In this document: one piece after another, positions 471-64,000 of the stretch
How the letters are laid out: each line of letters begins with the position of its first letter
Position numbering within the stretch: position 1 is the stretch's first letter
From: a virus
Lineage: Duplodnaviria; Caudoviricetes
DNA length: 64,000 bases
Direction: 5' to 3' (one strand)
Virus record (IMG/VR): IMGVR_UViG_3300005713_000004
Coordinates: 1-64,000 of that record
Translations under genes and position numbers: made by a program
Notes under the pieces: generated by a model
Seen by the model: the letters and a program-made list of their open reading frames with translations, nothing else
Database searches by the model: none
Told to the model about the DNA's origin: nothing

Positions 471-1215
471 AGGTCACCCCTCGCGCGCCCGATGATCGAT
501 GACCATCGCCCACCGTGTCAAGCCGCCCCCCTTCGATCGGGACGTCACAGCCCGGGGGAGGGCAGGGTCCCGGGTGCCCGGACGGGGCCTCGCACGCCGG
601 GTTGCTGCACGTGTCCTGCCGCTGCTGGTCGAGCACGGCGGCGAGGTGGACGAGGTGGGCCGGGGACCAGCGGGCAGGGCAGGCGAGGCAGCGGGCCCAC
701 CCGGTCGAGCGATCCACTTCGAGGGCGGGCCTGCGGACCCGCTCGCCCCCGTCCTCGACGTGGACCACCGCGACCCGGCAGGCTGGGCAGGGGGCGGCGA
801 GGCGCATCGGGCGGGGGGGCTCCACCACCTCGCGGGCACGGGCCACCCACACGGCGAGCGTGTCCACGGCGTCGGGGTCTGCTGTGTGGGCGTGGACCCA
901 GCGCCACACCCGGCGGACCAGCCACGAGCGGGGGCCTCGACCCACGACGTCCTCGACCTCGCCGAGCAGGTCCGCCGCCGACAGCCCGATCGGGGAACGG
1001 CTCGTTCCCCTGCTGCTGCGGTGGCCCGTGCCGGTGCTGGACTCGACGGCGTCGCAGACGAGGTCGAGCAGGGCGGGCACGCGGGCCGTGTGGGGTGGGG
1101 TCTCCCGCAGGAGGTCCACGTCCCGGGGGAGCAGCAGGGCGCGGGCGTGGTCGAGCAGGGTAGGCGGCCGGTCGATCGGGGTCACCGTCACCGCCACATG
1201 GTAGGGCGTGGACAC
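457..1215 (-). CDS. Zn-binding hypothetical protein in the late-regulator position
   Basis: CPAC...CLAC..W motif; directly upstream of HNH; GTG start lies inside a CGTGGACACG motif. Confidence 0.65.
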   Translation of the reverse strand: MSTPYHVAVTVTPIDRPPTLLDHARALLLPRDVDLLRETPPHTARVPALLDLVCDAVESSTGTGHRSSRGTSRSPIGLSAADLLGEVEDVVGRGPRSWLVRRVWRWVHAHTADPDAVDTLAVWVARAREVVEPPRPMRLAAPCPACRVAVVHVEDGGERVRRPALEVDRSTGWARCLACPARWSPAHLVHLAAVLDQQRQDTCSNPACEAPSGHPGPCPPPGCDVPIEGGRLDTVGDGHRSSGARGVTCASG

Positions 1216-1291
1216 GCCGCAGGCCCGGACCGTGATGGTCCGGGCCTGCGATGTCCCCTCGAACGCGGCGCGCGATCGTCAAGCGGCCATC

Positions 1292-1480
1292 TTACGGCGG
1301 GTCGTCCGGCTGAGTGTCGTCGGGCCGCAGGATCCACGCTTCGAGGGCTCCGGCGAGTTCGATCGGCACCCGGTGCTGCCACTTCCCGCCGGAGGCGATC
1401 AGCCGGGTAGCCGCGTCCAGCGCAGCACACCGGGCCTCGACGGTGAGGCGGATCCGGTCGGACGGGTATAGGTCGCTCAC
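1292..1480 (-). CDS. hypothetical protein
   Basis: GTG start (MSDLYPSDRIRL...), protein-like helical sequence. Confidence 0.5.
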   Translation of the reverse strand: MSDLYPSDRIRLTVEARCAALDAATRLIASGGKWQHRVPIELAGALEAWILRPDDTQPDDPP

Positions 1481-1533
1481 CCGTACCCGGCCGAAGTCGG
1501 CGGAGTACGTCTCGTGGCCACCGTCGAGGATGC

Positions 1534-2158: not shown

Positions 2159-2180
2159 GGTGGGTGCTCCTCCTGTGGTG

Positions 2181-2528: not shown

Positions 2529-2569
2529 GATCCCTACGGTAAGCGGGGTGTTTCGTGTGTGCAGCGCGA

Positions 2570-2853: not shown

Positions 2854-2875
2854 CCGCCCACGGTAGCCGTGGGCC

Positions 2876-3427: not shown

Positions 3428-3461
3428 CGACCGGGTTCTAACTGCCGGGCCAGTGAGTAAG

Positions 3462-4040: not shown

Positions 4041-5054
4041 TCACGCTTGCCACCGGACCGGGGCGAAGCGGGCCGCCTGCGGGCGCCGGTCGGACAGGTC
4101 GATCGTGTCGCCGCGCCGGAGCGCCTCGACGAGGGTCGTGTCCACGTCCAGCGGCGCGGAGATCCGGACCACCGGGTCCACGTCCACCACGACCGCGTCC
4201 GGGCGCTCGAACGACGCTTCGAGGCGCGGGCCGCGCTGCGCGAGCGCGTCGACTACCCGCGCCACCGGCGGCGCCTCGCACGTCCACTCGTGGACCTCGT
4301 CGATCACCACGAATCGGGGCGAAGCGCCACGAATGTAGGGGTTGACACCGGCCAGGATTCCGGTAGGGCGCCACCGGGACAGGTCGTCGGCGAAGCGGGC
4401 GAGCGCCTCCCCCGCAGCAGCGAACGCGGCGACGATCCCGTCCACCGACGAGCCCAGCGACGCGAACACGGCCGCCACCTCCCCTTCGGAGGGGATCCAC
4501 GAGGGCCGGGCCGGAGGGAACGCCCACTCGTCCGGGACGAGCGGCATCGTGCCCTCCGCATAGACCGGGGAGTGGGCCTCGACGTCCTCGCGGTCGTACC
4601 CGTGCGCGATCGCGTCCGTGATCGCGTTCTCGTCGACCAGCATCGGGGCAGGCGCGCCCCACTCGAACGGCCACGCGAGGTCGTCGTTCCGCTCGTCCCC
4701 GGCCGCTGCGAGGGCGCCAGCAGCCGCGTACGCGCTCCGGGAAGCGTCGGAGGACAGGTGGGGCGCTCCGGGGCCCTGCGGCGTCGCAGCGGCGGCGAGC
4801 CGGGCCGCAGCATCGGTCACGGCCGGATCCGGGGCCCCGGAGATGCCCTCCGCGATCCCGTCGGCCCACAGCCCGGCGATAAGCCGGGCCTCATGGGCGG
4901 AGATCGCCCCGCCCTCGTTCTGCCGCAGTAGCGCAGCCTCGACGGCGAGCAGGTCCACCATGGTCATGCCCTCGCTCCGCGCCGCGTGGAACCGACGAGG
5001 ACGAGCCGGGTCGTCCGGGTTGGACGCCTCGAAGCGGCGCGGTCCGGTGCACAT
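4041..5054 (-). CDS. hypothetical protein
   Basis: Acidic protein-like sequence; start coupled to stop of the DUF1353 gene. Confidence 0.6.
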   Translation of the reverse strand: MCTGPRRFEASNPDDPARPRRFHAARSEGMTMVDLLAVEAALLRQNEGGAISAHEARLIAGLWADGIAEGISGAPDPAVTDAAARLAAAATPQGPGAPHLSSDASRSAYAAAGALAAAGDERNDDLAWPFEWGAPAPMLVDENAITDAIAHGYDREDVEAHSPVYAEGTMPLVPDEWAFPPARPSWIPSEGEVAAVFASLGSSVDGIVAAFAAAGEALARFADDLSRWRPTGILAGVNPYIRGASPRFVVIDEVHEWTCEAPPVARVVDALAQRGPRLEASFERPDAVVVDVDPVVRISAPLDVDTTLVEALRRGDTIDLSDRRPQAARFAPVRWQA

Positions 5055-7271: not shown

Positions 7272-7613
7272 TCATCCGACGAGTTCGTACCCGCCCTCGT
7301 CGTCGAGCAGTACCAGCCCCACCGCGAGCCGGACCGGGACCGTGGACACGTCCTCGACCTGCCAGCCCACCGCCCAGCCGTTCGCCTCCGCTTCGGTCCG
7401 GTCGCCCTCAATCCGGCCGTGACACCCCGACGTGTTCCCCATCCCGCACACCGCGAGCAGCCACGCAGGCGAGTGGATCGCCCGTCGGGTCCCGCCCATC
7501 CCCCGGCCGCGCCGGTGGTGGACGTTCGAGGCGGGAGCGGCTCCACAGACCTCGCACATGCCGCCCGCGCGGTCGAGGACGATCCGCCAGTCCCGCGCGC
7601 TCACCGAAGCCAC
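7272..7613 (-). CDS. HNH endonuclease
   Basis: CEVC...HHRRGRGMGG...C...CHG.IE. Confidence 0.85.
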   Translation of the reverse strand: MASVSARDWRIVLDRAGGMCEVCGAAPASNVHHRRGRGMGGTRRAIHSPAWLLAVCGMGNTSGCHGRIEGDRTEAEANGWAVGWQVEDVSTVPVRLAVGLVLLDDEGGYELVG

Positions 7614-7819
7614 GAGGACAGCCTACGGGCTCCGTGGGACAGCGGCCGGGGGTCTGACCGACCCCCGGCCGGGTGCAAGCGCCGACGAGCGCTCCGATCC
7701 CGACCGAGGGGTGGGAGCAGGTCGTCTCGCGCGCTCACCCCGCACTGCTCGCGTCCTCGCCCACCCGTCACGGCGGCTACTCCGCGAGATGGTGAGCAGC
7801 GTACGCCCGGACACGACGA

Positions 7820-7846
7820 AGCCCCCCGCCGGATGGGCGGGGGGCT
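7820..7846 (-). terminator. GC-rich hairpin, probable terminator
   Basis: 11-bp stem just after the stop of 7852-8223. Confidence 0.6.
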
Positions 7847-7851
7847 GGTCG

Positions 7852-8223
7852 TTAGCAGGTGCAGCCGGGGAGAGCCTCCGCGACCGTCATCTCCGCCCGG
7901 ACCTCGTCCGCGTGCTGGCAGGCGGGGAGTTCGGCGAGGATCCGGGTCGTGATCCGGTTGAGCCGGTCGGCTTCCTCGACCACGTAGGCGGCGAGGTTGC
8001 GGGCCCGGAACTCGCTCCGGCGGGTGGCGACCCGCTCCGCGTCGCGGCGCAGGTTGCCGTGCCACGTGTGGAGGTTGTAGACCCGGTGGCTCCGGAGACA
8101 CGCCCAGTCGCGGTTCATGTCGCCGGTCTCTGCGTCTCCGGCGGGCCCGCACATCAGTGGGAGCGCGAGGAGGCTCGCAACGGCGGCGGCGGCGCGGGTG
8201 GCGTGCTCGGCGATGGTGTCCAT
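7852..8223 (-). CDS. hypothetical protein
   Basis: Own promoter, leader and downstream hairpin. Confidence 0.75.
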   Translation of the reverse strand: MDTIAEHATRAAAAVASLLALPLMCGPAGDAETGDMNRDWACLRSHRVYNLHTWHGNLRRDAERVATRRSEFRARNLAAYVVEEADRLNRITTRILAELPACQHADEVRAEMTVAEALPGCTC

Positions 8224-8233
8224 CGTGTGTGCC

Positions 8234-8312
8234 TCTCTGTTGAGTTTTCAACCCCGGGAGGAGTTCCCCTCCCGACATGAGAGACATTACCCGCCTCGCC
8301 GTGGGTTGTCAA
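8234..8312 (-). promoter_or_regulatory. promoter TTGACA-17-TAATGT plus hairpin and boxA-like TTGAAAACTCAACAGAGA
   Basis: Repeat-family match. Confidence 0.8.
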
Positions 8313-8333
8313 CCCGACGAGGTCACGAGATCG

Positions 8334-8573
8334 TCACGGCGCCCAGCACGCCCGGCACATCTCCCCCCGAAGCGCCTTGAGCGCCGTCGCCCACGGCCGG
8401 ACGACCGGGGACAGCGGCGAGGCGGTCCCGGAGCCCAGCGCCCCACAGGCGGCTCGCCACGAGGTCGTGGTGATGCCGTTCGGGTGGGTCGTCGAGGTCG
8501 AGTCCTCGCAGCGGTGGAGCGGGTAGCCGACGACCTGCGCGCCGGTGTGATTGAACGCGGGATGACGGGCCAC
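8334..8573 (-). CDS. hypothetical protein (Cys/His-rich)
   Basis: GGAGG RBS upstream. Confidence 0.55.
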   Translation of the reverse strand: MARHPAFNHTGAQVVGYPLHRCEDSTSTTHPNGITTTSWRAACGALGSGTASPLSPVVRPWATALKALRGEMCRACWAP

Positions 8574-8672
8574 GAGGGCACCTCCGAACGAAGCGGGGGC
8601 CCGGAGCCGCTCCCCCGTGGCTCCGGGCCCCCTGGTGAGCAGCAGCGGCCCCCCGGCCCACTGCTGCGAGGT

Positions 8673-8873
8673 CTACGTGTGGTCGCTGGTGAACTGCGTG
8701 CAGCGGCAGTTCACCGGCCGGACCCAGCGCCGACCGTCGAGGTCGTATCGCTGGTGGGTCCGCGCGTCCTGTGCGTCGGAGTCCTCCACCGGCCCTTCGG
8801 TCGGGCCGTCGCGCTTCGGCGGCTCCGGCTCGCCCTCGTGTCCGAACTGAATCCAGCGGTTCCGCCAGCCCAT
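8673..8873 (-). CDS. small hypothetical protein
   Basis: GGGAGG RBS; downstream of promoter at 8922-8949. Confidence 0.55.
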   Translation of the reverse strand: MGWRNRWIQFGHEGEPEPPKRDGPTEGPVEDSDAQDARTHQRYDLDGRRWVRPVNCRCTQFTSDHT

Positions 8874-8921
8874 CGGTGCCTCCCGTGGTGGGTGGGGGGC
8901 TCGTTCCCCCCGACACCAGTA

Positions 8922-8964
8922 ACCTTACACGGTCCCCGGGGAATGTCAACCCCGGGGACCGTGT
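8922..8964 (-). promoter_or_regulatory. promoter TTGACA-16-TAAGGT inside a 15-bp inverted repeat
   Basis: Arms 8927-8941 and 8950-8964 are perfectly complementary. Confidence 0.8.
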
Positions 8965-9068
8965 CGGCTACTTCGGCCGGGTGTCCACCTTCCGGCCCGT
9001 CTTGTCCCGGGGCGGGGTGCAGATGCACACCCGCCCTTGCGGCGAGCAGCGCCCGCAGGTCGAGGCGC

Positions 9069-9221
9069 TCACTTCGACTTCCTCGACGGGTCCACATAGT
9101 CGGTGTCCGGCTTGACCGGCTCCGGCCACCCGCTCTTCTTGTCCGACCGCTGGTCGTCACGCGGACACGTGCACGTCACGCCCCGCGATGCGCAGTCCCT
9201 TACGCAGGCCACGAAGGGCAC
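9069..9221 (-). CDS. small Cys-containing peptide
   Basis: MPFVACVRDCASRG...; preceded by hairpin and boxA-like ACCAACCCAACAGAGAG. Confidence 0.5.
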   Translation of the reverse strand: MPFVACVRDCASRGVTCTCPRDDQRSDKKSGWPEPVKPDTDYVDPSRKSK

Positions 9222-9925: not shown

Positions 9926-10047
9926 GTTATTGAGTTATCAAGGGGCGGAGCCCCGGGGGGCTTCCGTCCCCCTCATGAGAACTACTTTACACGGTTTCCG
10001 GGGAGAGTCAAGCCGAATCCGTAGGCCGATCGGGTGACTTCCCACGG
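9926..10047 (-). promoter_or_regulatory. promoter TTGACT-16-TAAAGT with upstream GTCACCCGATCGG box and boxA-like leader TTGATAACTCAATAAC
   Basis: Repeat-family match. Confidence 0.8.
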
Positions 10048-10609: not shown

Positions 10610-10827
10610 CGCTGCGCCCACCGGACGACGACGACCCCGACCAGCAGGACCGCGAACACGGGCCACGCGATGACCCACAACAGGCAGGCGCCCAGCGTAG
10701 CGCCGCCCGCCTCGACGAGGGCGCGCCCGCCGTCCGTGGCGCCGAAGATGAGCCGGGCCATCGCGGCGGCTCCGGCGAGGTAGACGACGAAGGGCAGCAG
10801 CGGGGCGAGGCTCGCGAGCGTGGACAC
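10606..10827 (-). CDS. membrane protein
   Basis: Two TM segments; start codon inside a CGTGGACACG motif. Confidence 0.65.
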   Translation of the reverse strand: MSTLASLAPLLPFVVYLAGAAAMARLIFGATDGGRALVEAGGATLGACLLWVIAWPVFAVLLVGVVVVRWAQR

Positions 10828-10829
10828 GG

Positions 10830-11135
10830 TCAGCCCACCTCGACCCAGCGGCCGACGCAGGCGAGGACGTCGCCGTACGAGCCGGAGTCCATGACCTCCG
10901 CGCGGAACGCCTTGACGGCTGCGGCGTCGGCTCCGGCGCGGCCCAGCGCGCGGGCGACGCGGCCCATGATGGCGCCCACGTTCCCGTCCTCGCCGGAGAG
11001 CTGAGCGAAGGCGTCGGGGTAGTACGGGCGCTCCGGGTCGCGGTCGGGCCAGTGGATCGGGTGGGCGCAGGTGGTGGACTCCGCCTGCGTGGCGGGGTGG
11101 TCGGCGATGGGGCAGGTCTGTTCGGCCGTGGACAC
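10830..11135 (-). CDS. conserved phage hypothetical protein
   Basis: QLSGEDGNVGAIMGRV...SGSYGDVL motif typical of a widespread small phage protein. Confidence 0.7.
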   Translation of the reverse strand: MSTAEQTCPIADHPATQAESTTCAHPIHWPDRDPERPYYPDAFAQLSGEDGNVGAIMGRVARALGRAGADAAAVKAFRAEVMDSGSYGDVLACVGRWVEVG

Positions 11136-17076: not shown

Positions 17077-19377
17077 GTGTCGGAGACGCCTACCCGGATC
17101 ACGATCCCGCCCGCGCTGGGCTACCCGGTGTTGGGCGTCCTCGTCGTGTTCATCGCCGGGTGGCTCTACACGTTCGCCGGGGCGGAGCACTTCGCGCCGT
17201 GGTGGCTCCTGCTCGCCGTGCCGGTGCTGGGCTTCCTCGGCGCCGCGCTCGCCCGGACCTTGTGGGCGGACGTCGCGTACGGGGTCGCCCAGCAGCGGGC
17301 GGCGGTGTGGTTCGCGTGGGTCGCGGCGGCCGGGGCGGGGGCGTGGCTCACGTGGGCCGGGCTCGTCACCCCGGGCGCCGCGCTCCCGCTGCTCGTGTTG
17401 GGCGCCCTGCCGTTGTGGGGGTGGTTCGCGATCCTGTGCCTGCGGGCGCCGAAGGCCCACGCCCGGCAGGTCGAGCGCCGGGAGGAAGGGCGGCAGATCG
17501 TCCAAGAACGGTCGTGGCGGACGATCCTCGACCGGTCGGGGTCGGAGGACGTGGTGATCACGGAGGTCCGAGAGCACCGGGCCGGGATGGTCCTCACGGT
17601 CGAGCCGGACCCGGACGCGGCGAAGTTCCCGACGTACGACGAGTTCGCGGGCCGGGCGCCGTCGATGGCGACGCAGGCGGCGATGCACTACCGGCGGACC
17701 TCGAACACGCGGCTTCCGAAGAACTGCGTCCGGACGGAGCCGGGCCGCGACGACGCAGAGTTCCTCGTCCACATCACGATGCGGGACGTGTTCGGGGCCT
17801 CGACGTGGTACCAGCCGGACGAGGTCCCGGGGGACATCGCGGACCCGGTGGATCTGGGCGAGTACGAGGACGCGGCACGGCTGCTGCTCCCGCTGGACGC
17901 GAACACGAAGATCGTGGGGGCGACGGGGGCGGGGAAGTCCAACCTCGTGAACAACATCATCGGGCGGATCACCGGCACCATGAACGCGCTCGTGTGGGTC
18001 GCGGCCACGGACAAGTTGGTCCCGCTCGTGTGGCCGTGGCTGCGGGCGTGGCTGTCGGGGAAGACGAGCCGCCCGATCCTCGACTACGTCGCTGGGCAGG
18101 ACATCGACTCCGTGTTGCGGCTGCTGCGGGCGACGTACCGGCTCGTCTGCGAGCGCAACGCCCGACTTGAGGACGAGTCGAAGATCCGGCCGACGGCGGA
18201 CCTGCCGGTGGTGTTCGTGATCCTCGAAGAGGTGTCCCACCTCACCGACTTCCCGGACACCATCCGGACCCACGACGGGATCGACTGCACGGCTTCGGAC
18301 CTGCTCAAGATGATTGCGCAGGCGGACCGGTCGGCGGGGGTCCGGCTGTTCATGCTGTCGCAGTACGGGATCAACGCGGCTCTCGGCGACCGGGCGTCGG
18401 AGTTGATCCGCAACATCACGTGCAGGATCTGCCTTCGGACCATGGAATCCCACGACGGGTTCCGGACCCTGCCGGGTCTGCCGTCGACCGTGGACACGAC
18501 CTCGCTCGCAAACTTCACGATGTACGTGCAGCCGAACACCGAAGAGGCGCGGGCGTTCCCGGCGAAGGCGCCGGAACTGGACGGCGCCGAGCAGGTCGAG
18601 CCGGTCGCGATCGGGAACACCCGGTGGCGCCCGGCCGGGGTCGAGCCGGAGGTGGCCGCGCTGCTCGGCCTCGACTACGAGCGGCGGTGGGCGTCCTCGC
18701 GCCTGCCGATCCTGGCGGCCCCGGTGGCGAGGCGCGGGTGGGAGTGGCCCGGCGAGCAGGTGGCGCCGGTCCCGGTCCCGGCGGCGCCGGTCGACGAGGT
18801 GGACGAGGGGTCGCCCGTGGCGGGCGGCCCGAACGATGGGGGGGACAGCGTGGATACGACCATGAGTCCGGAGGACGAGGACGCGTTCCGGCGGCTGCTC
18901 GGCGGCGACGAGCCGGAGCAGCGGCAGGGACCGGCTGCGGCTGCGTCGGTCGCGGTCGACCGGGACGAGGACACGAGCGGGCGCGCGGCGCCGTTCGAGG
19001 TCCCCGACTTCGGCGCGGAGATGGCGGAGATGGAGGCGCTCGCGGCGGACATCGCGGCGAACCCGTTCGTCCCGGGTCGCGATCAGGACGCGACCCGGGA
19101 GGCTGGTCCGGGTCGCCCGGTCCCCGACCCGCTCGACCGGGTCGTCCGGTGGCTGGACTCCGTCCCGGTCGACGAGGACGCGTGGGTCCGGACGGAGGAA
19201 CTCGTGTTCCGGATCGGGTGGGACCGGGACGCGGCGGCTCTCGGTCGGGCGCTCGCGAAGTTCCCGGGCGTCCGGTCGGACAACCTGCCCCGGCAGTTCG
19301 ACCCGCAGCAGCGGAAGGGCTACCCGGTCCGGATGCTTCGGGAGGCGGCGACCCGGTACCGGTTCGGGTCGCCGTAG
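17077..19377 (+). CDS. traB: TraB-type FtsK/SpoIIIE DNA translocase (actinomycete conjugation ATPase)
   Basis: N-terminal TM helices, Walker A GATGAGKS, Walker B VFVILEE, DRSAGVRLFMLSQ arginine-finger region, acidic linker, C-terminal winged-helix-like domain. Confidence 0.88.
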   Translation: MSETPTRITIPPALGYPVLGVLVVFIAGWLYTFAGAEHFAPWWLLLAVPVLGFLGAALARTLWADVAYGVAQQRAAVWFAWVAAAGAGAWLTWAGLVTPGAALPLLVLGALPLWGWFAILCLRAPKAHARQVERREEGRQIVQERSWRTILDRSGSEDVVITEVREHRAGMVLTVEPDPDAAKFPTYDEFAGRAPSMATQAAMHYRRTSNTRLPKNCVRTEPGRDDAEFLVHITMRDVFGASTWYQPDEVPGDIADPVDLGEYEDAARLLLPLDANTKIVGATGAGKSNLVNNIIGRITGTMNALVWVAATDKLVPLVWPWLRAWLSGKTSRPILDYVAGQDIDSVLRLLRATYRLVCERNARLEDESKIRPTADLPVVFVILEEVSHLTDFPDTIRTHDGIDCTASDLLKMIAQADRSAGVRLFMLSQYGINAALGDRASELIRNITCRICLRTMESHDGFRTLPGLPSTVDTTSLANFTMYVQPNTEEARAFPAKAPELDGAEQVEPVAIGNTRWRPAGVEPEVAALLGLDYERRWASSRLPILAAPVARRGWEWPGEQVAPVPVPAAPVDEVDEGSPVAGGPNDGGDSVDTTMSPEDEDAFRRLLGGDEPEQRQGPAAAASVAVDRDEDTSGRAAPFEVPDFGAEMAEMEALAADIAANPFVPGRDQDATREAGPGRPVPDPLDRVVRWLDSVPVDEDAWVRTEELVFRIGWDRDAAALGRALAKFPGVRSDNLPRQFDPQQRKGYPVRMLREAATRYRFGSP

Positions 19378-19567
19378 GCTGTCCGGGTCGTCCCGTCCTG
19401 CTACGCGACCCGCTACGTGGGTCGGGGCGACCCGGACAGCCACCGGCGCGCGGCGAGCCGGAGCGGGTCGCCGGACCGGGGTGGACGACCCGGGAGAACC
19501 TGCTCCACGCGAGAGGCCCGGCCCCGACGGGGGCCGGGCCTCTCTGCTGTCCCGGGTTAGCGACCCG
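19071..19567. repeat. clt-like cluster of CGACCCG repeats (about 15 copies)
   Basis: Counted in the traB 3' end and downstream intergenic DNA; resembles the GACCCGGA TraB recognition repeat of pSVH1. Confidence 0.65.
19511..19544. terminator. bidirectional hairpin between convergent units
   Basis: Perfect 15-bp stem, 4-nt loop. Confidence 0.75.
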
Positions 19568-19898
19568 CGAGCCAATCGTTGAACCGGTCGCGAGCCTCTT
19601 CCTCGGACCCGGCGTAGTAGCCGCCGCCGGGGCCTTCCTCGAAGTAGCGTTCCGCCGCGCGCTCCGCCGCGATCTCCGCCCGGTGCTCGGCCTCCCATTC
19701 CTGCTGAATCGCCCAGCAGTGTCGGACGTGGGCAACGGTGGCGTGGCGGACGATCGCGTCCGGCCCGGTGACGCCGTAGCCCCGTTCGGTGTCGGAGCAG
19801 GATCCGCAGCGGACGCCGTCCGCTGTGCGCTCCGGGAGGCGGTAGTACTCGATCTCGTCGATCGGGCGGGCGGTGGCGGCCGTGGTGAGGGTCGACAT
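19557..19898 (-). CDS. hypothetical protein (CxxC, HxxxC)
   Basis: GGAGG RBS after boxA-like leader. Confidence 0.7.
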   Translation of the reverse strand: MSTLTTAATARPIDEIEYYRLPERTADGVRCGSCSDTERGYGVTGPDAIVRHATVAHVRHCWAIQQEWEAEHRAEIAAERAAERYFEEGPGGGYYAGSEEEARDRFNDWLAGR

Positions 19899-19916
19899 CG
19901 TGTCCTCCGGTGAGGG

Positions 19917-19990
19917 TCTCTGTTGAGTTTTCAACCGGACCCGGTGGGCCCGACACGAGAGACATTACACGGCGACCCACGACCACGCAA
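19917..19990 (-). promoter_or_regulatory. promoter TTGCGT-17-TAATGT plus hairpin and boxA-like TTGAAAACTCAACAGAGA
   Basis: Repeat-family match. Confidence 0.75.
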
Positions 19991-24396: not shown

Positions 24397-24525
24397 GAGG
24401 ACAGGGTAGGGCGGGGCGCCGGGCGACGCACCTTCCCCACCGTGGATTACCTTGCCAAACCTTCCGTGGATTGTCAACCCGCCTGGTCCGATCGGGTGAC
24501 AATCCACGGAATCCACGCAGGGGGC

Positions 24526-24555
24526 TTGCGCGTGTCCACGCCTTGCGGGTAATGT
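24526..24555 (+). promoter_or_regulatory. promoter TTGCGC-18-TAATGT with CGTGTCCACG overlapping the -35/spacer
   Basis: Repeat-family match. Confidence 0.75.
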
Positions 24556-24595
24556 CTCTCATGTCAGGCAAGCCCCCCCCGCCACGGAGGACACG

Positions 24596-25288
24596 ATGAG
24601 CGACAACGACACCACCACCGGCCCCACCTACCGACTCACCCGCGAGGACTGGTTGCACCGGGCGACCGACATCCTCCGCCCGATGTTCGAGCAGGTGGGC
24701 GCCACCCTCCCCGACGTGATCCACCTGTCCGTCGGCTTCGGCGGCTCCGGCGCCGGGAAGTACGAGCGGTTCGTAGAGGGCGTCACGTGGTTCCGCGCGG
24801 CCGACGCCTGCGGCCACAACCACGTGTTCATCTCCCCGACGCTGGGCGACACCGCCCACGTCCTCGAAGTCCTCGTTCACGAACTGTGCCACGTTGCCAC
24901 GGACAACGTGGGTGGTCACGGGGGCGAGTTCGCGGAGTTCATGACCCGGCTAGGCATGACCGGGCGGATGACCACCGCGCAGGCGGACGTGCCGTTCATG
25001 GCGGAGCTGATGGTCATCGCGGCGGAGTTGGGCGACTACCCCCACGGGGCGCTCGACATGGCGCCCGTCAAGGTCGAGGCGCCGGTGGGCCCGGACGGGA
25101 TCGAGATCCCGGTCGGGCGGCCGACCAGCGGCCCGAAGGCGCAGACAAACCGGTGGATCTCGTTCTCCTGCCCCGTCCACGACGCGCCGGTCCGGATGTC
25201 GCGGACGAAGGCGGCTCTCGGCGCCCCGTACTGCGGCCACCGGGACGAGCAGGGCGTCCCGTGCCTCACGGAGATGGTGGCGCGGTAG
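24596..25288 (+). CDS. SprT-like zinc metalloprotease with C-terminal Zn ribbon
   Basis: VLVHELCH...HGGEF; CP.H...PYC. Confidence 0.8.
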   Translation: MSDNDTTTGPTYRLTREDWLHRATDILRPMFEQVGATLPDVIHLSVGFGGSGAGKYERFVEGVTWFRAADACGHNHVFISPTLGDTAHVLEVLVHELCHVATDNVGGHGGEFAEFMTRLGMTGRMTTAQADVPFMAELMVIAAELGDYPHGALDMAPVKVEAPVGPDGIEIPVGRPTSGPKAQTNRWISFSCPVHDAPVRMSRTKAALGAPYCGHRDEQGVPCLTEMVAR

Positions 25289-25328: not shown

Positions 25329-25384
25329 TCTGCGTCCTCGACCTGCCGCAGGTCGTGTCCACGGTCACGAGTCGGTCACGGGGC

Positions 25385-30466: not shown

Positions 30467-31039
30467 ATGGACTGGCGGCACGGCGCCCACTGCCGGGGCG
30501 CGAGCGAGCCGGAGGTGTGGTTCCCGGTCGACGAGGACCAGGGCCACGACGCGCCGGGTGTGGTTCGGGCGCGCCTCGCCTGCGCGCCGTGCCCGGTCCG
30601 GGCGGAGTGCCTGTCATGGGCCTTCGAGTCCGGGCAGACGGCCGGTGTGTGGGGCGGGATGTCGACGCCGGAGCGCCGGGCCCTGCGCGCCCCGGAGCGG
30701 CTCCGTGTGGCCGCTGCTGCGGCGTCGGACCGGCGAGCCCGGGAGGACGCACAGCGGGACGCACAGGAGGACGCAGGCGCCAGCACGGAGGGCGGGGCGG
30801 GGGACACCCTGCCTCGCCCTCGTCGGCGGCGGGGTGGCCAGCCGCCGGGGACGACGCGGGCCCACCGGTCCGGGTCGGTCGGCCGCTGCGCCACCTGCTC
30901 GAAGCGCCTCGACCTGCGCGCGGACGGGCGAGTCGTCCGGCACGACCGGGTGTTGGACGGGAAGCGTGGGCACTGCCCCGGCTCCGGCGAGGTGTCGGCG
31001 GTCGAGGCGCTTCCCGGGTCGGGGCGTGTCCACGGGTAG
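30467..31039 (+). CDS. whiB: WhiB-family Fe-S transcription regulator with C-terminal extension
   Basis: C...WFP...CAPCPVRAECL...GVWGG...ERR. Confidence 0.9.
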   Translation: MDWRHGAHCRGASEPEVWFPVDEDQGHDAPGVVRARLACAPCPVRAECLSWAFESGQTAGVWGGMSTPERRALRAPERLRVAAAAASDRRAREDAQRDAQEDAGASTEGGAGDTLPRPRRRRGGQPPGTTRAHRSGSVGRCATCSKRLDLRADGRVVRHDRVLDGKRGHCPGSGEVSAVEALPGSGRVHG

Positions 31040-31151: not shown

Positions 31152-31529
31152 GTGGCAAAGCGCAAGGAACCGATGGCGCCGATCAGCTACAAGACGGCGG
31201 GCGCGGAGTGGGGCAACGCGGCTGCGGCTGCGGCCCTGTGCGTGGGCAGCGACGGCAAGGCGATCTCCGCCGACACGTTCCAGTGGTACGTGCGAACCGC
31301 CGACCCGAACGGCGACAACCCCCCGCCGAAGGCGGAGCGGGTGGACCCGCACACCCGGCAGAGCATGTACCGGCTCAAGCGGGTACGGGAGTGGCACGCG
31401 AAGCGGCCCGGCCGTGGGAATTGGGGCGGCATCGGCGCCCGCGCCCGCCTGCCGAAGGACCAGCAGGGCGAGCCCGTGGACACGCCCGCCCCGGAGGCGG
31501 GCGCGGAGCCCGCCTCGCAGGACGCGTGA
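31152..31529 (+). CDS. AlpA/excisionase-like HTH protein
   Basis: ISADTFQWY...PPP...MYRLKRVREWHAKRPGRG. Confidence 0.65.
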   Translation: MAKRKEPMAPISYKTAGAEWGNAAAAAALCVGSDGKAISADTFQWYVRTADPNGDNPPPKAERVDPHTRQSMYRLKRVREWHAKRPGRGNWGGIGARARLPKDQQGEPVDTPAPEAGAEPASQDA

Positions 31530-41643: not shown

Positions 41644-41886
41644 TCATGCTCCGATCGCGGTCGAGGTGGGACGTCCGCCGACGCCGCGCCCCTCGTGGGC
41701 CTCGCCCGTGAACTGCGCTTCGACCCACGCGATGACGTCGGAGGTCTGGTACATCACGCGGCGTCCGACGTTCGTCCACTTCGGTCCGGGGCGCCCCGGC
41801 TGTCGGCGCCAGTACTTGAGCGTCTCGATCGGAACGCCGGACAGCCGGGACGCCTCCCGGGCGTCGATCATCAGGGGGGTGGTCAC
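41644..41886 (-). CDS. AlpA/MerR-like HTH (excisionase-like)
   Basis: ASRLSGVPIETLKYWR..GPKW..VGRRVMY...VIAW. Confidence 0.8.
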   Translation of the reverse strand: MTTPLMIDAREASRLSGVPIETLKYWRRQPGRPGPKWTNVGRRVMYQTSDVIAWVEAQFTGEAHEGRGVGGRPTSTAIGA

Positions 41887-46816: not shown

Positions 46817-47856
46817 CGGATGTCCAGCGCGCCGGATGCCCACTGGTCCTCCAGCGCTCGCGTCGACCAGCGCGGCAGACCTACCCGCATCGGCTCCCCG
46901 ACGGCGAGCCCTTCGAGGCCCATGTGGTCGGGCCACTCCCCGGTGCCGACGCAGCGGGCGTAGCGGTCGAGCGCCTCGCGGACCTTGAGTCGTCCCCACT
47001 GCTGCGCTTCGTCGTCCATCTCCACGACGGTGACGAGGTAGGGGTACCGGGTCTCTTGGAACACGAACAGGAACACGGGGTCCTGCTCGTCGTCGAGCAG
47101 CGCCCGAACACCATCCCGATAATACGCGTCCTGCGTGTAGTACCAGAAATCCCACAGCGCCTTCGCGATCCCCTCGCGATTGACCTGCGACCCCCGGGAC
47201 TTCACGTCCACGATGGCGAGGCGGCCGTCCGCGAGTCGGCACGTCCAATCCAACTTCGCCCGGCGCCAGACCCCGAACTCCTCGTCGTACCAGAACATCG
47301 CGCGCTCCGGGGTCCCGCGCTCCCGCTCGAACAGGTGGCCCGTCCGGGGGTTCGAGCGGATCGCCTTCGCCATCCCCCGCGCCTTCGCGTCCTCGCGTTC
47401 GAGGATCGGCACGCGACCCGCCTCACGGGCGGCGGCCCGCTGCTGCTGCGCCGCCTTCCCCCGCCAGTCCTTCGCGTGAACGACCTCGATCTCCGCGCCG
47501 ACGCCCAGCACGTAGAAGTGCACGGCGTGACCCAGGTCGAACGCGTCTTTCGGCTCGCGCGGGTGGGTCCCGTCCAGCGACGCCCGGTAGAACGCGGGCG
47601 AGTCGGTCATGAGGGTCTTCATCCCGGAGTGGGACAGGCTCCCCGCCTTGACGGGGTCCCGGTGGTACACCTCGTCGGACATGCCGTCCACGACGCAGGG
47701 CTCCGTGATGATGTTCGAGCCGATGCCCTGAATCGCGGCGATCACCACGTCCGGCGCGTCGGCTACAGTGGGCCCCGGTGTCGCTTCGGCGCGCTCCATC
47801 GTGGTGGATGGTTGGACGGAGCCCTCGTCGCCTTCGGGTGTCGGGGGCTTCGTCAT
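46813..47856 (-). CDS. exonuclease VIII / RecE-like PD-(D/E)XK nuclease (DUF3799)
   Basis: YH.D...LS.SG.K, GHAVH..VL, RAKLDW, IVDVKS, Y.TQDAYY. Confidence 0.88.
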   Translation of the reverse strand: MTKPPTPEGDEGSVQPSTTMERAEATPGPTVADAPDVVIAAIQGIGSNIITEPCVVDGMSDEVYHRDPVKAGSLSHSGMKTLMTDSPAFYRASLDGTHPREPKDAFDLGHAVHFYVLGVGAEIEVVHAKDWRGKAAQQQRAAAREAGRVPILEREDAKARGMAKAIRSNPRTGHLFERERGTPERAMFWYDEEFGVWRRAKLDWTCRLADGRLAIVDVKSRGSQVNREGIAKALWDFWYYTQDAYYRDGVRALLDDEQDPVFLFVFQETRYPYLVTVVEMDDEAQQWGRLKVREALDRYARCVGTGEWPDHMGLEGLAVGEPMRVGLPRWSTRALEDQWASGALDIR

Positions 47857-48212
47857 GCCGGAGGCGGGAAGTCGGAGCCGTGGACGAGGTCCACCCGGGA
47901 CGGGTGCTCGGCGGCCGGGACGGGCGGGAGCGCGTCGGGGTTGAGCGCCCCGGGCGGCGGCGCCTTCGAGATCCCGGGGAGCCACACGATCTCCTCGATC
48001 GCGAGCCCGGGGATCTGCTCGTGGATGCGCCGGGCGACGGCGGCCGTGGTGGGCGCCCCGGCGAGCATCCGGCCGACGGTCGACTCGTGGACGCCGACGC
48101 GTCGCCCGAACTCTGCCTTCGACCAGCCGAGCACGCGGCGGGCGAAGTTGAGGACGGGGCCGTTCACGAGGTACGACGCGCCGTCGGGGGCGGACTCGAA
48201 TGCCGCCGTCAT
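47853..48212 (-). CDS. XRE/Cro-like HTH regulator
   Basis: LGWSKAEFGRRVGVHESTVGRMLAG; first gene of the leftward operon. Confidence 0.82.
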   Translation of the reverse strand: MTAAFESAPDGASYLVNGPVLNFARRVLGWSKAEFGRRVGVHESTVGRMLAGAPTTAAVARRIHEQIPGLAIEEIVWLPGISKAPPPGALNPDALPPVPAAEHPSRVDLVHGSDFPPPA

Positions 48213-55817: not shown

Positions 55818-55874
55818 GCGCCCTGCCCTTCGTAGTGGTCCGCCGTGGACACGATGTCACCTCCGGCGGAGGTT

Positions 55875-57950: not shown

Positions 57951-57953
57951 CGC

Positions 57954-59026: not shown

Positions 59027-59043
59027 GCGGTCCCCCTCCCTTC

Positions 59044-61205: not shown

Positions 61206-62680
61206 CAGCCGATCACCTCCCCCCACGTCTCGAACGCTTCGAGCACCTCGCCCCACGTCTCGTACTGTTCGAGCAGGATCGCCCACGTCATCCCGGACCC
61301 CACGACCGACGGCGGCGGCGGCGCAACCTCCGTGACCTGGACCTCCGTGATGTAGGTCCGGCCGTTGCGCGCCTTCCCGATCCGCCGCGCCCGGATCGAG
61401 CCGATCGCGACGTACATCGACGGGAACGGCACGGACTCCGGGACTTGCAGGAACGCCGGGGCGCCCTGCGTGAGCGCCCGCTTGAGCGCGAGCCGGTCCG
61501 CCTCCGTGTGGGTGGCGAACCGGACGGTCGTGGACACGCTGTCGTGCACGTCGGTCACCACGATGGGGTCCGACCGGCCCGCGACCCGGTGGACCACGTT
61601 GCGGCTCTCCTGCGCGAGTTCGTGGAGATCGGCGATGATCTCCACCTTGAGGTTCGTGTGCGGCGCCGGGATGAACTTGAGCCACGACTGGTCGAGCGTG
61701 TCTTCGAGGTCCGCGAACGCCGTTTGCACGACCGCCTGCGGCTGCACGTTCTCCGGGCTCGACAGCGCGTCGATCCGGTATTCCACGCCTCGCCCGGCTT
61801 GCCACTCGTAGTCGTCGACCCGGCGGACCGTGGTCCCGGCGGCGACGGCCACCTTCCCGCCCCGCACGGGCCGCCACCGGGACGTCCCCTTCGCGCGGCT
61901 GTAGACGATGACCCGGATCACCTCCTGCGCGAGCCCCTGGATATCGAGCCGGATCCGGCCGCGCCGGTCGTCGTACGTCGCGGTCGCGAACAGGCCCGTC
62001 GAGGCGAACGGCGGGAGCAGGTCCGCCGCGCCGGTACCCCGGGAGGTCCGGACACCCAGCCCGAACGCTGCGGGCGTGTCCACGACCGTGAGCCCGGTCG
62101 TGGGCGGGTCGGTGTCCCACGTCGAGGTCCCCTGCCCCGGAGTCCCGTCGTCCCAGACGGCGCCCGGCGTGTCGCCGTCGAAGTAGTTCGCGCCGAGCAC
62201 GGAGTACGCGAGCGCGGCTTCCGCCTCCGGCAGGGTGTCGAACTCCTCGACCATGTAGGCGGTGACCTGCGCCTCGCCCGTGATGTCGTTGAGGGTGCCG
62301 GTCAGCCGGACCGCGTTCACCGGGGCCTGTCCGAGCACGGCGAACCGGTTCGTGGTGTTCGCCGCCTGCGAGAACGTGGGGCCCTGCGTCGAGGGGGACA
62401 GGAACACGTTCCCGCCGGTGTACCAGTCGATGTTCATCTGTCCCGACGCGCACGGGGCGATGAACCGGACGGACACGGAGACGACGTAGTACTTCCCGGC
62501 GGTCACGGCCGCGCGGGTCATGGCGATCTGCCCGCTGCTGGGCGCTGCTGCGCCCCGGAACGCGGTCGAGCGCGGCAGGCTCGCGTGAGCGCCGGTGATG
62601 CGGTCCCACGCGGACGGGAACCACGTCGTGTCATCGACGCCGAGAGCGGGGTTGATCGCGAGGTTGCGGCGGATCGTCAC
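61205..62680 (-). CDS. distal tail protein with N-terminal carbohydrate-binding-like module
   Basis: NLAINP...YFDGDT module; directly downstream of the tape measure. Confidence 0.75.
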   Translation of the reverse strand: MTIRRNLAINPALGVDDTTWFPSAWDRITGAHASLPRSTAFRGAAAPSSGQIAMTRAAVTAGKYYVVSVSVRFIAPCASGQMNIDWYTGGNVFLSPSTQGPTFSQAANTTNRFAVLGQAPVNAVRLTGTLNDITGEAQVTAYMVEEFDTLPEAEAALAYSVLGANYFDGDTPGAVWDDGTPGQGTSTWDTDPPTTGLTVVDTPAAFGLGVRTSRGTGAADLLPPFASTGLFATATYDDRRGRIRLDIQGLAQEVIRVIVYSRAKGTSRWRPVRGGKVAVAAGTTVRRVDDYEWQAGRGVEYRIDALSSPENVQPQAVVQTAFADLEDTLDQSWLKFIPAPHTNLKVEIIADLHELAQESRNVVHRVAGRSDPIVVTDVHDSVSTTVRFATHTEADRLALKRALTQGAPAFLQVPESVPFPSMYVAIGSIRARRIGKARNGRTYITEVQVTEVAPPPPSVVGSGMTWAILLEQYETWGEVLEAFETWGEVIG

Positions 62681-64000
62681 TAGTAGCTCACCCCCGGCCC
62701 GGCTCCGGCGCGCTGGATCGTTTCCCGTTCGGAGTCGTCCACCTCGATCCGGACGATGCCCCGGAGTTCGGTGTCCCCGATGTAGACCCGGACGTCGGGC
62801 GGGGGCGTGTCCACGCTGCGGCCCATGATGTCGGCGAGCGCGGCGGACCCGGCTCCGGCGGCCTGCGCCGCCTGCGCGGTGAGCGAGGCGGTCACCGGAG
62901 CGAGGTCGAGCGAGAGCCCGGTCACGGGCGCGGCCATGTTGTCGACCGCTGCCTGTCCGAGAGCGCGGGCGCTCGCGATCACGTCGCCGGTCATGTCAGT
63001 GATGCCGAGCGAGAACCCGGAGCCCACGTTCCGTCCGACCGTGAACCGCATGAGCTTGGACGGGGAGGCGATCCCGAAGAACTCTTGCATGGACTGCCAC
63101 GCCGAATTGGCGAGATCCTGGGCGGCCTGCCCGACGGCACCGATTCCGTCCTTAATTCCCTGGACGAATCCGTCGATGATTTCCTTAGCGATATCAGCGA
63201 CCTTGCCGGGCAGTTCCTTAATCCACTTAATGAACTCGTCGACGAGTTCCTGTGCTTTTTCTCCCGCCTGCCGGACGAGGTCCTGGAATCCGTTTACGGC
63301 CTGCGTGATCATGTCGTTGATCCACGTCATGACCTGTCCGGGCAGCCCGGAAATAAAGCCGATCACGCCGGTGACGAGTTCGCCCGCCTTCGCGACCGCC
63401 TGTGTCACCATGTCGGTGAACCCGGTCACCACGTCCGTGACCAGCGTCGTTACCCACTCGATCGCGCCGGTCACGAGATCGGCGAAGAACTGGATCACCT
63501 GCGGGACCCAGCCTGCCAGGCCCGTAAGAACGTTGTTGATCAAGTCGAGGAAGAACTGAATAACGGTCGTCACGAATCCCACGACCGACTCGATAACCGC
63601 CGCCGCCATTTCGACGAACACGGCGATGATCTGCGCCGCGAACTCGATTATCGGAGTGATAATTGTGATGATCGCGGTCGCAATGGAAATGATCGCCTCG
63701 ACCATAGGAATGATCGCGGGGACCACAGAAATGAACGCATCGACCAGCGGAGGAATGACGGTGGTCGCCAGATTGGAAATAATCGGAAGCAGTGGAATAA
63801 GCGCCTGGACGAGTTGCGAGAACCCATCGACGATCACCGGGACCAGCGGAGCCACCGCGTCCAGCGCCCGCGACAACTGCTCCGCCACCACCGCGGCGAT
63901 CTGCTCGATCACCGGCCGCAGCGCCACGAACAGCGGTTGCAGCGCTTCGAGCGCCCCGACGAGCAGTTGCGAGATGATCCCGGCCGCTTGCTCGATCACC
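62680..64000 (-). CDS. tape measure protein, C-terminal part (5' truncated by window)
   Basis: Amphipathic repeats; FFGIASPSKLMR...GFSLG motif; start lies outside the window. Confidence 0.9.
   Translation of the reverse strand, partial: VIEQAAGIISQLLVGALEALQPLFVALRPVIEQIAAVVAEQLSRALDAVAPLVPVIVDGFSQLVQALIPLLPIISNLATTVIPPLVDAFISVVPAIIPMVEAIISIATAIITIITPIIEFAAQIIAVFVEMAAAVIESVVGFVTTVIQFFLDLINNVLTGLAGWVPQVIQFFADLVTGAIEWVTTLVTDVVTGFTDMVTQAVAKAGELVTGVIGFISGLPGQVMTWINDMITQAVNGFQDLVRQAGEKAQELVDEFIKWIKELPGKVADIAKEIIDGFVQGIKDGIGAVGQAAQDLANSAWQSMQEFFGIASPSKLMRFTVGRNVGSGFSLGITDMTGDVIASARALGQAAVDNMAAPVTGLSLDLAPVTASLTAQAAQAAGAGSAALADIMGRSVDTPPPDVRVYIGDTELRGIVRIEVDDSERETIQRAGAGPGVSY

Follow-up and report, generated by a model that had tools for sequence, protein, structure and literature searches.

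A dispersed 10-nt word in an actinophage genome is a putative recognition site associated with a SprT-like gene

Introduction

Short DNA words that recur many times along a genome have been described in several systems. The stoperators of Cluster A mycobacteriophages are 13-bp sequences found in short intergenic spaces, and they are read by an L5 gp71-type repressor that possesses a helix-turn-helix (HTH) and a stoperator domain (PMC9283540). Cluster O mycobacteriophages present 17-bp repeats (TGTTCGGNNNCCGAACA) organized as 7-3-7 dyads, and dimeric regulators were suggested as their readers (PMC4351075). Other words, such as the DNA uptake sequences (DUS/USS), Chi sites and the orienting sequences of FtsK and SpoIIIE (KOPS/SRS), belong to host chromosomes and are read by host machines. 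Here, we analyzed a 10-nt word, CGTGGACACG/CGTGTCCACG, which is dispersed along the first 64 kb (positions 1-64000, hereafter the window) of a virus record (76,733 bp, 72.6% G+C; IMG/VR record IMGVR_UViG_3300005713_000004, hereafter G000). The record corresponds to a tailed actinophage from a soil metagenome assembly. An initial annotation of this stretch proposed that the word is a genome-wide binding site for a dimeric protein and named four possible explanations: a dispersed centromere, a stoperator-like repressor network, a packaging or protection signal and a methylation-driven motif similar to HIP1.

Our results point on balance to a putative cis-acting site that a phage-encoded DNA-binding factor would recognize in a sequence-specific manner, this factor being genetically linked to a gene encoding a SprT-like protease. 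The searchable literature on the 10-mer and on the sister words described below yielded primers and unrelated uses only, and no description of the word. A megablast search of 20 kb against deposited phages and plasmids returned no match, and a capsid-based search of genome contigs did not identify any relatives. Among sequencing runs, a search recovered the source soil metagenome only, with no RNA record listed.

Results

An exact and strongly over-represented word

An exact search of both strands identified 50 copies of the 10-mer in the window, 27 on the (+) strand and 23 on the (-) strand, with strands assigned by the reading of GGAC. The initial annotation had counted at least 49 copies, split 27/22, and every copy coordinate that it listed is correct. 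Based on shuffled sequences that preserve dinucleotide composition, 0.65 copies were expected in the window; the shuffles contained at most four copies and none of the 100 reached 50. The whole record presents 61 copies (0.79/kb, with a mean spacing of ~1.3 kb) compared with 1.56 expected under a third-order Markov model. The copies are distributed as follows:

859..62815 of the window: dispersed word array, with 11 further copies at 64273-75778 of the same record
(+) strand copies of CGTGGACACG: 1207, 2597, 2709, 3748, 5537, 7341, 10819, 11127, 12102, 15540, 16577, 18489, 20064, 22562, 23496, 27029, 31475, 34048, 39062, 44552, 45669, 53956, 55844, 55908, 57806, 60741, 61529
(-) strand copies of CGTGGACACG: 859, 4137, 14788, 21189, 24531, 25354, 28904, 31025, 32733, 33316, 34655, 36115, 36424, 37267, 41981, 48635, 49805, 51583, 52503, 57606, 60822, 62075, 62806

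The enrichment is restricted to the exact sequence. Among the ten control words of the form CGTG-NN-CACG, GA/TC alone was found in excess (61 copies) and the others were found zero or one time each. The 30 variants that differ from the 10-mer by a single mismatch are at background level, with 0-4 copies for each variant, and neither of the two perfect palindromes (CGTGGCCACG and CGTGTACACG) is present. Sequence TGGACACG occurs 63 times, and 61 of these occurrences are within the full 10-mer. The sites of G000 present a C at position -1 in 94% of cases and a G at position +1 in 93%, and the flanks of the 10-mer show a weak GGn...nCC preference only. When viral sequences were scanned for the extended word GGnCGTGGACACGnCC, only chance singletons were found among the matches listed.

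Pairs of 10-mers separated by 60-64 bp recur in G000 (three pairs relative to 0.54 expected; P=0.015). Such pairs were observed at 55844/55908 in the window, at 4489/4552 and 6918/6979 of L001, and also in G302, G303, G305 and G306; at least some of them are at homologous positions.

Selection acts on the DNA word

The majority of the copies (42/61, ~69%) are located entirely within called genes, and the fraction found outside coding sequences (31%) is about twice the expected fraction (15%). Using gene calls based on the periodicity of G+C content at third codon positions, 35 of the 41 in-gene copies were found to share a single frame, the only one in which third positions remain G or C. The word is then read nC-GTG-GAC-ACG or nC-GTG-TCC-ACG and encodes the tripeptides VDT or VST, which are over-represented 2.6-fold and 2.4-fold, respectively, in the proteomes of motif-rich genomes. 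In motif-free relatives, the corresponding values are 1.4-fold and 0.8-fold, neither of which is a clear excess. Codon usage predicts that the exact word should encode a small minority of these tripeptides, with a probability of 0.077 for VDT and 0.032 for VST. Because 84 of the 103 VDT/VST tripeptides of motif-rich genomes are encoded by the exact word, against the 3-8% predicted, a codon model is excluded. The word is maintained by selection at the DNA level and not at the protein level, and it distorts the proteome. The most conserved genes, those encoding the major capsid protein (MCP) and the portal, contain no copies in four relatives.

Seven to eight copies provide a GTG start codon. 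The six overlaps initially reported (start codons at 1215, 10827, 11135, 12110, 14796 and 49806) were all recovered, together with two others at 22563 and 32734. The copies concerned are:

1207 (start of a gene on the (-) strand at 1215), 10819, 11127, 12102, 14788, 22562, 32733, 49805: copies that contain a start codon, e.g., GGAGG-N5-C-GTG at 11135

The junctions at 10827, 12110 and 49806 share the arrangement RBS-N-TGA-C-GTG-TCC-ACG (where RBS is the ribosome-binding site), in which the upstream stop codon ends one base before the start codon contained in the word. These effects call for caution when gene callers and codon or peptide statistics are applied to these genomes.

Association of the word with an early-gene block

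Relatives of G000 with similar virion genes were found with and without the word. L123, L124/L125 and G303 are motif-rich (0.67-0.81/kb; the comparisons with L123 and L124 cover ~20 kb per contig). L126-L129, whose large terminase subunits (TerL) are 60-66% identical to that of G000, contain no copies. A 74-kb contig with a syntenic gene order and two prophages of Pseudonocardia are among these four, and L126 and L128 carry a Prim-Pol/AAA_25 replication module. Conversely, the 62-kb, 90%-complete IMG/VR genome G302 has a TerL that is only 31% identical to that of G000, yet it presents 29 dispersed copies, and its early block is syntenic with that of G000. This block comprises an FtsK/TraB-like translocase, a YdjM-like protein, a SprT-like protease, two WhiB-like proteins, a phrog_597 DNA-binding protein, a DUF2303 protein, a YfdP-like protein, a PD-(D/E)XK nuclease and small HTH proteins. 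Four more independent contigs that bear the block (L374-L377) contain 0.68-1.11 copies/kb. The word was present in all six independent block-bearing genomes, at 0.46-1.11/kb. This distribution suggests that the word tracks the shared early-gene block rather than the virion module. A replication initiator is present in G000 and is not common to all motif-rich genomes. The WhiB-like members of the block are:

30467..31039, (+) strand: WhiB-like protein (PF02467, E=1e-17; phrog_472), with homologues in G302, L374, L375 and L377
33403..33939, (-) strand: second WhiB-like protein, with an N-terminal extension (PF02467, E=1e-8) and homologues in the same four genomes (G302, L374, L375 and L377)

Several of these relatives present features of their own. 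L374 contains, beside the main word, a second over-represented 10-mer, CGTGAGAACG (five copies, ~70-fold). The motif-free L126, a prophage of Pseudonocardia hispaniensis, has its own modestly enriched word, CGTGCAGGA(C), with nine and six copies (~30-56-fold). Finally, the motif-rich L376 encodes at 7566-9209 a 547-aa TROVE/Ro60-like protein with a von Willebrand factor A (vWA) domain, which is unusual for a phage.

Sister words accompany the SprT-like gene across phages

We searched viral contigs with an alignment of the SprT-like protein and identified 80 loci with 28-45% identity and 35-71% G+C. Nearly all of these loci have their own dispersed and strongly over-represented word of the same shape, Y-GTnTnnAC-R, i.e., Y-GT[T/G]T[A/C][A/C]AC-R. 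The word is C/T-GTTTAAAC-G/A in phages of 35-58% GC, GTTTAAAC being an 8-bp palindrome, and C-GTGTAAAC-G (GTGTAAAC/GTTTACAC) in phages of 61-69% GC. In the lineage of G000, which includes phages of 70-73% GC with the WhiB/Xis-like/DUF2303 early block, the word contains GTGTCCAC. This sequence is two substitutions away from GTTTACAC or GTGTAAAC and three from GTTTAAAC, it is strictly asymmetric, and the pyrimidine at -1 and the purine at +1 are common to all word classes. GTGTCCAC represents a third, GC-shifted and strictly asymmetric class of the word family.

A locus was considered word-bearing when it contained at least three sites at a density of at least 0.25/kb. Based on this threshold, 69 of the 80 viral SprT-like loci carry GTTTAAAC or GTGTAAAC, and 75/86 of all SprT-like loci are word-bearing. 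None of 181 unrelated control viral loci (1.87 Mb) passed the threshold and none of them encodes a SprT-like homologue. The features of the word family are found together in G000: the word at 0.25/kb or more genome-wide, a SprT-like protein with HExxH and a Cys/His ribbon, and an upstream copy. Representative genomes with sister words are:

G307 (complete genome): 24 sites in 46.7 kb; reversed-word control, 0
G309 (complete genome): 58 sites in 62.7 kb; reversed-word control, 4
G308: 53 sites in 38 kb; reversed-word control, 0
Arthrobacter phage Powerpuff (cultured): 27 GTGTAAAC sites in 44.7 kb; reversed-word control, 0

Intergenic sites account for 13 of the 27 in Powerpuff, where one site is found 44 bp before and another just after the SprT-like gene gp49. 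SprT-like was the only protein of G000 with homologues in the other word classes (all 80 loci), and the only family common to the three classes within 5 kb on either side. Word classes cluster on the SprT-like tree (eight changes relative to 29.6 when shuffled), and the GTGTCCAC class forms a single clade with 100/100 support. A copy was found close upstream of the SprT-like gene in 31/78 loci overall.

The SprT-like gene, its promoter and its protein

In G000, the SprT-like gene is bracketed by two copies of the word:

24500..24575, (+) strand: SprT-like promoter region, with the hairpin GCGCAAG...CTTGCGC, a -35-like TTGCGC (24526-24531), an 18-nt spacer that contains the 10-mer and a -10 TAATGT (24550-24555)
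24531..24540, (-) strand: operator-like copy in the promoter spacer; CGTGTCCACG is read on the sense (+) strand, and the start codon follows 56 bp later
24596..25288, (+) strand: SprT-like zinc metalloprotease gene, 230 aa (Pfam PF10263, E=7e-6), prime candidate for the reader; residues 95-99 form the HExxH motif, and a Cys/His Zn-ribbon is present at the C-terminus
25354..25363, (-) strand: downstream copy, 66 bp 3' of the SprT-like gene, which brackets it together with the copy at 24531

The upstream copy had already been reported to overlap the -35 and spacer of a promoter at 24526, and its position is confirmed. In an alignment of six genomes, the promoter 10-mer is invariant: it immediately follows a -35-like TTGC(G/A)C, the -10 GTAATGT begins 7-9 bp further downstream, and the orientation is the same in 6/6 genomes. 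Copies equivalent to the downstream one were found in L376, L374, L375 and, at 35656, in Powerpuff. The SprT-like promoter is the sole word-bearing member of a family of ~12 promoters of this phage (TTGACA-N17-TAATGT).

This promoter unit, with its TTGACA-like -35, 17-nt spacer and -10 GTAATGTCT, is repeated ~12 times across 8237-32264 of the window (e.g., at 8284, 13027, 19962, 22315, 24550, 25408, 25939, 26457, 29241, 29703, 30174 and 32210). Several units are followed by a hairpin and the leader AACTCAACAG, and the -10 word AGACATTAC recurs in L374 and L375. A 12-13-mer, GTCACCCGATCG(G), is present in nine copies (>130-fold over expectation) at 10027, 24489, 25889, 26407, 28039, 29191, 29653, 30124 and 32160. 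Most of these copies precede a repeated promoter by ~50 bp, which raises the possibility of a second operator-like element.

Residues H95, E96, H99, H108, C192 and C213 are invariant across 20 aligned SprT-like homologues. The AlphaFold2 model of the protein (mean confidence score, pLDDT, of 82) predicts a zincin domain at residues 16-145 (confident), a disordered linker and a Zn-ribbon at residues 186-230. Its best Foldseek matches are SPRTN (6mdw), IrrE, abylysin (4jiu), CapP and Wss1, all of which are weak (E ~0.02-3). A complex prediction with two copies of the protein scored 0.44 relative to 0.31 for the control. A preprint on Cluster AZ phages describes a SprT-like homologue with the same structural reading and calls its C-terminal module a DNA-binding domain (10.1101/2025.05.26.655371); the Cluster AZ papers, including this one, mention the SprT-like protease and no repeated word. 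The HTH proteins initially listed as candidate readers do not include the product of this gene (24596-25288), the one gene that tracks the word across lineages and has a conserved copy in its promoter.

Spacing, turnover and polarity

Copies of the word are more evenly spaced than expected by chance. The coefficient of variation (CV) of the spacing is 0.67 in G000 compared with 0.98 at random (P=0.0002), and the largest gap is 3478 bp relative to 5779 expected. Similar values were obtained for G302, an independent complete genome (CV 0.61, P=0.003), and for the sister word of Powerpuff (CV 0.54, P=0.0004).

Even spacing might be expected of a dispersed centromere or tethering system for a non-integrating prophage, comparable to the four dispersed sites of N15 or to the ram sites of RacA. 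We scanned 105 non-structural proteins of G000 against Pfam (E<=1e-3) and detected no integrase, in line with this scenario, and a replication initiator is present; in addition, the fold of the MerR-like protein at 31152 (described below) also matches the DNA-binding domains of RacA and pSK1 Par. However, the same scan did not identify any ParA/CbiA, ParB/ParBc or TubZ/TubR family, although small or novel centromere-binding proteins could escape it. Powerpuff carries a sister word and yet possesses a serine integrase, sixty sites are far above any known centromere, and the polarity described below would be left unexplained. A centromere, one of the mechanisms initially proposed, is therefore highly improbable.

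Positions of the copies turn over rapidly. Among 154 orthologue pairs of motif-rich genomes, 100 sites were unique to one genome, 16 were shared and three were shared but inverted. The same codons of TerL encode VST in G000 and VDT in L124, and unique sites are frequently found opposite indels. Density and coverage are thus conserved and positions are not.

A turnover at constant density resembles that of KOPS, SRS and DUS, and it is conceivable that the word is a loading or recognition sequence for an FtsK/TraB-like translocase or for DNA packaging; the translocase is common to G000, G302, L374 and L376. Nevertheless, the repeat units that flank the translocase gene differ from phage to phage (CGACCCG, CGGACCG and ACCGCTCC), whereas the 10-mer is invariant, and the packaging signal proposed initially does not stand for this reason. 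Moreover, G000 and G302 have unrelated terminase subunits (TerS and TerL), and Powerpuff has the sister word and no annotated FtsK/TraB-like translocase. We consider this explanation extremely unlikely. The translocase itself was rejected as the reader of the word on the basis of these repeat arrays and of the divergence of its C-terminus:

17077..19377, (+) strand: FtsK/SpoIIIE (TraB-like) translocase (phrog_31069, E=2e-15); C-termini are 37-48% identical while the 10-mer is invariant

Dense arrays flank the translocase gene at 18900-19950 of the window (with CGACCCG found 14 times near 18.9-19.9 kb), at 2300-3300 of L374 and at 1-1700 of L240. These arrays are consistent with clt-like sites specific to each translocase.

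The orientation of the copies is balanced along the genome, as initially stated, and a runs test was non-significant in G000 (33 runs relative to 31.4 expected). The claim that orientation is unpolarized does not extend to the copies that are non-coding or at gene edges: these read CGTGTCCACG on the sense strand in a ratio of 13:4 in G000 and of 42:14 when pooling ten motif-rich records (P=2e-4, a value that overstates independence because related genomes share some sites). Coding copies present a ratio of 22:20 in G000 and of 86:55 in the pooled records, in the opposite sense to non-coding copies, which codon and residue usage could explain.

Host chromosomes

All organism-named terminase relatives are prophages of Pseudonocardiaceae, the most likely host family. 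Across 301 Pseudonocardiaceae genomes, the density of the word did not exceed ~0.016/kb, which is at least 50-fold lower than the 0.79/kb of the phage. This set includes nine unpublished genomes (G285, G130, G063, G276, G233, G088, G039, G005 and G124), and the maximum was not among these nine, on which the result does not depend. The 4.8-Mb genome of P. hispaniensis contains 16 copies of the word and 17 copies of the reversed-word control. A scan of all species genomes for pairs in the same orientation revealed local tandem repeats only, among the 120 matches listed. The 10-mer thus appears to be a phage word, absent as an enriched word from the chromosomes of the host family.

The genomes of Pseudonocardiaceae nevertheless carry 10-180 copies, often ~3 times the reversed-word control. 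Such regulon-like numbers could suggest that the phage word is a sponge or decoy that titrates a host DNA-binding protein, such as DnaA or a regulator with tens of sites. The high-affinity DnaA box of actinobacteria is TTGTCCACA (PMC4285127), and its core is identical to the 7-bp core TGTCCAC of the word. However, the canonical box TTGTCCACA was found zero times in eight motif-rich records, the flanks of the 10-mer are strictly CG...G, and only 7/9 positions match the box. Furthermore, neither sister word (GTTTAAAC or GTGTAAAC) is a DnaA box, and the word follows a phage gene across hosts of 35-73% GC, which is beyond any single host factor; the 3-fold excess in hosts is also compatible with codon usage. 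A decoy is accordingly very unlikely. WhiA, whose motif is GACAC, was also considered as a reader and was dropped: the flanks of the 10-mer are strictly conserved and the sister words do not contain GACAC.

The lack of enrichment in the host family also bears on a word linked to modification or restriction, whose excess would be generated by repair or protection, as for HIP1 or the target of a DNA-modifying enzyme. The all-or-none specificity of the word is enzyme-like, the putatively ancestral GTTTAAAC is an 8-bp palindrome of the kind recognized by type II enzymes, and Powerpuff encodes a DNA methyltransferase. Restriction targets, however, are normally depleted and not enriched in phages. 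No methyltransferase or other modification enzyme was detected among the 105 proteins of G000 scanned against Pfam, and this scenario leaves both the placement of a copy in a promoter spacer and the transcription-linked polarity unexplained. The HIP1-like alternative suggested initially thus finds no echo in the Pseudonocardiaceae or in the Pfam scan, and we regard a modification-linked word as most improbable.

Candidate repressors

The conserved copy in the promoter spacer and the polarized non-coding copies are also what one would expect from a stoperator-type repressor network, which would rely on a small DNA-binding protein from the early block to silence the phage genome. The SprT-like gene would then be either the first regulated gene or an anti-repressor protease similar to ImmA/IrrE/CapP. 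The best candidate is encoded at 31152-31529, followed by those at 47853 and 41644:

31152..31529, (+) strand: excisionase/MerR-type winged-helix protein, second candidate reader, restricted to this lineage; phrog_597 'DNA binding protein', with a conserved domain of ~90 residues and an invariant PGRGNWGGIGARAR tail (19 homologues aligned)
47853..48212, (-) strand: Cro/CI-type HTH, possible repressor and weak candidate; HTH_31/HTH_3 (E ~2e-4 to 9e-4), 34% identical in G302, not found in other word classes
41644..41886, (-) strand: MerR/Xis-type HTH of 80 aa, weak candidate; MerR_1/HTH_17, phrog_66, homologue in G302 only

The AlphaFold2 model of the 31152 protein (pLDDT 76) aligned best, using VIA-align, to the excisionase of Pukovnik (Xis, Z 5.2), followed by RdfS, GIsul2 Xis, BldC, MerR DNA-binding domains, RacA and pSK1 Par; these matches are modest. 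Homologues were identified in G302, L374, L375 and L377 and are absent from the other word classes. Searching viral and metagenome contigs with the protein yielded G302 only, and the profile of the family did not return anything meaningful against solved structures. Word-seeded protein searches overlooked homologues that were already known, and a protein's absence from their results is given no weight here.

The winged-helix fold of this protein, its invariant residues and its presence in 5/5 block-bearing genomes that cover the region are consistent with a repressor. An asymmetric site would also suit a monomeric two-part reader, as for the repressors of Cluster A (PMC9283540), and the SprT-like fold resembles those of IrrE and CapP, which cleave repressors. 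However, homologues of the candidate repressors were missing from all 80 sister-class loci, although the architecture of the word is retained there; each class would therefore need an unrelated repressor of near-identical specificity. In addition, ~69% of the copies are intragenic and unpolarized beyond an excess of GA that codon or residue usage can explain, and the immediate neighbors of the SprT-like gene in G000 include no member of a DNA-binding family. No gp71-type repressor architecture was recognized among the 105 proteins by Pfam, and no search aimed at that repressor was made. Overall, a repressor network seems rather unlikely.

Discussion

The word is inserted in the tolerant parts of genes, renewed at new positions at a constant density, and fixed once, in the spacer of the SprT-like promoter. 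The initial proposal of a genome-wide protein-binding site is the best supported with respect to a selected site that base composition does not explain, as indicated by the host, codon and Markov comparisons; among the mechanisms that it named, only the stoperator comes close.

Across phages, the co-occurrence of the word with the SprT-like gene makes it fairly probable that the reader is linked to this gene. The most economical reading is that the reader would be the SprT-like protein itself, through its C-terminal zinc-ribbon; based on co-occurrence, we view this as a plausible but tentative proposal, somewhat short of an even chance. The SprT-like protein would then autoregulate at its own promoter and dock at ~1-kb intervals along the phage DNA. 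Docking could have two outputs: either a DNA-dependent protease would be positioned to remove DNA-bound proteins from the phage chromosome, or transcription would be subject to an orientation-sensitive brake or operator formed by the bound protein, in the fashion of stoperators. In its most complete form, which is speculative and on the whole unlikely, this scenario would have a SprT/Spartan-like protease act as a sequence-specific reader that docks every 1-2 kb, clears phage DNA of host DNA-bound proteins such as silencers, defence proteins or stalled complexes and autoregulates, while the word co-evolves as the GC content of the host changes, from GTTTAAAC to GTTTACAC and then GTGTCCAC.

Several observations weigh against assigning the word to the SprT-like protein. 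Microbacterium phage Dismas (MG670586.1) has an annotated SprT-like protease beside a ParB-like nuclease gene and no GTKTAMAC in 41.6 kb, and 11/86 SprT-like loci are below the word threshold; the SprT-like gene is therefore not sufficient for the word. An upstream copy was found in only 12/54 loci of the GTTTAAAC class. The clustering of word classes on the SprT-like tree does not prove co-evolution, because related genomes share labels. Structural matches are weak for both candidate readers (Foldseek E ~0.02 for the SprT-like protein and VIA Z ~5 for 31152). The idea of a dimeric protein fits the palindromic, possibly ancestral GTTTAAAC, while the center of GTGTCCAC is strictly asymmetric and would be a poor fit to a symmetric dimer. 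Finally, the true reader could be a small and fast-evolving DNA-binding protein beyond the detection of BLAST, or its gene could lie over 5-10 kb away from that of the SprT-like protein.

If the SprT-like protease does read the word, it would be the first protease of the Spartan family to be addressed by sequence, and it would give viruses a new means of policing what is bound to their DNA. Genome-wide sequence marks are rare among phages, and the known ones (Cluster A stoperators, read by repressors, and Cluster O repeats) are confined to single clusters. Here, a single architecture accompanies the same gene in phages whose hosts differ widely, and its letters shift with GC content. Cultured systems exist in which these predictions could be tested, namely Arthrobacter phage Powerpuff and its relatives of Cluster AZ, and the word constitutes a cheap metagenomic signature for this supergroup of phages.

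The candidate reader shares with SPRTN and Wss1 an HExxH zincin core and a C-terminal zinc-binding module, for which DNA binding is predicted. The DNA binding of SPRTN and Wss1 is not sequence-specific, and DNA-protein crosslinks are their targets; to our knowledge, neither a sequence-specific docking word nor autoregulation has been described for them. With DUS/USS, Chi and KOPS/SRS, the word of G000 has in common its exactness, a constant density with rapid turnover, its location at tolerant sites of genes and its effects on peptide composition. Those words differ in that they belong to the host chromosome, and Chi and KOPS are polar with replication; the present word is owned by the phage, with neither arm polarity (33 runs relative to 31.4 expected) nor enrichment in Pseudonocardiaceae. 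The recognition sequences of TraB (TRS/clt) are 8-bp repeats that are clustered beside traB and specific to each TraB. The 10-mer does not correspond to such sites, because it is dispersed and invariant between phages and the arrays near the translocase use other words.

Among phage repeats, those of Cluster O resemble the present word by their more than 30 dispersed copies, about one third of which are coding and many intergenic, and by an orientation bias of the central bases (PMC4351075). They differ by their sequence, their length and dyad structure, their concentration toward one end of the genome, their restriction to one cluster and the absence of a reported link to a SprT-like gene. 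The closest of the mechanisms named initially is the stoperator, because of the conserved copy in the promoter spacer and the polarized non-coding copies. As in Cluster A (PMC9283540), a short, asymmetric and phage-specific word occurs tens of times at ~0.5-0.8/kb, one copy has the position of an operator within an early promoter, and the reader is a phage protein, presumably so in G000; non-coding copies of the word also tend to be oriented relative to transcription, although the pooled genomes share some sites. In contrast to stoperators, which have an unrelated sequence of 13 bp, the word is 10 bp long; 42/61 copies lie within genes instead of short intergenic spaces, non-coding copies being only ~2-fold enriched, and the word follows a SprT-like gene over 35-73% GC where stoperators are read by a repressor with HTH and stoperator domains. 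The word of G000 is thus stoperator-like but distinct.

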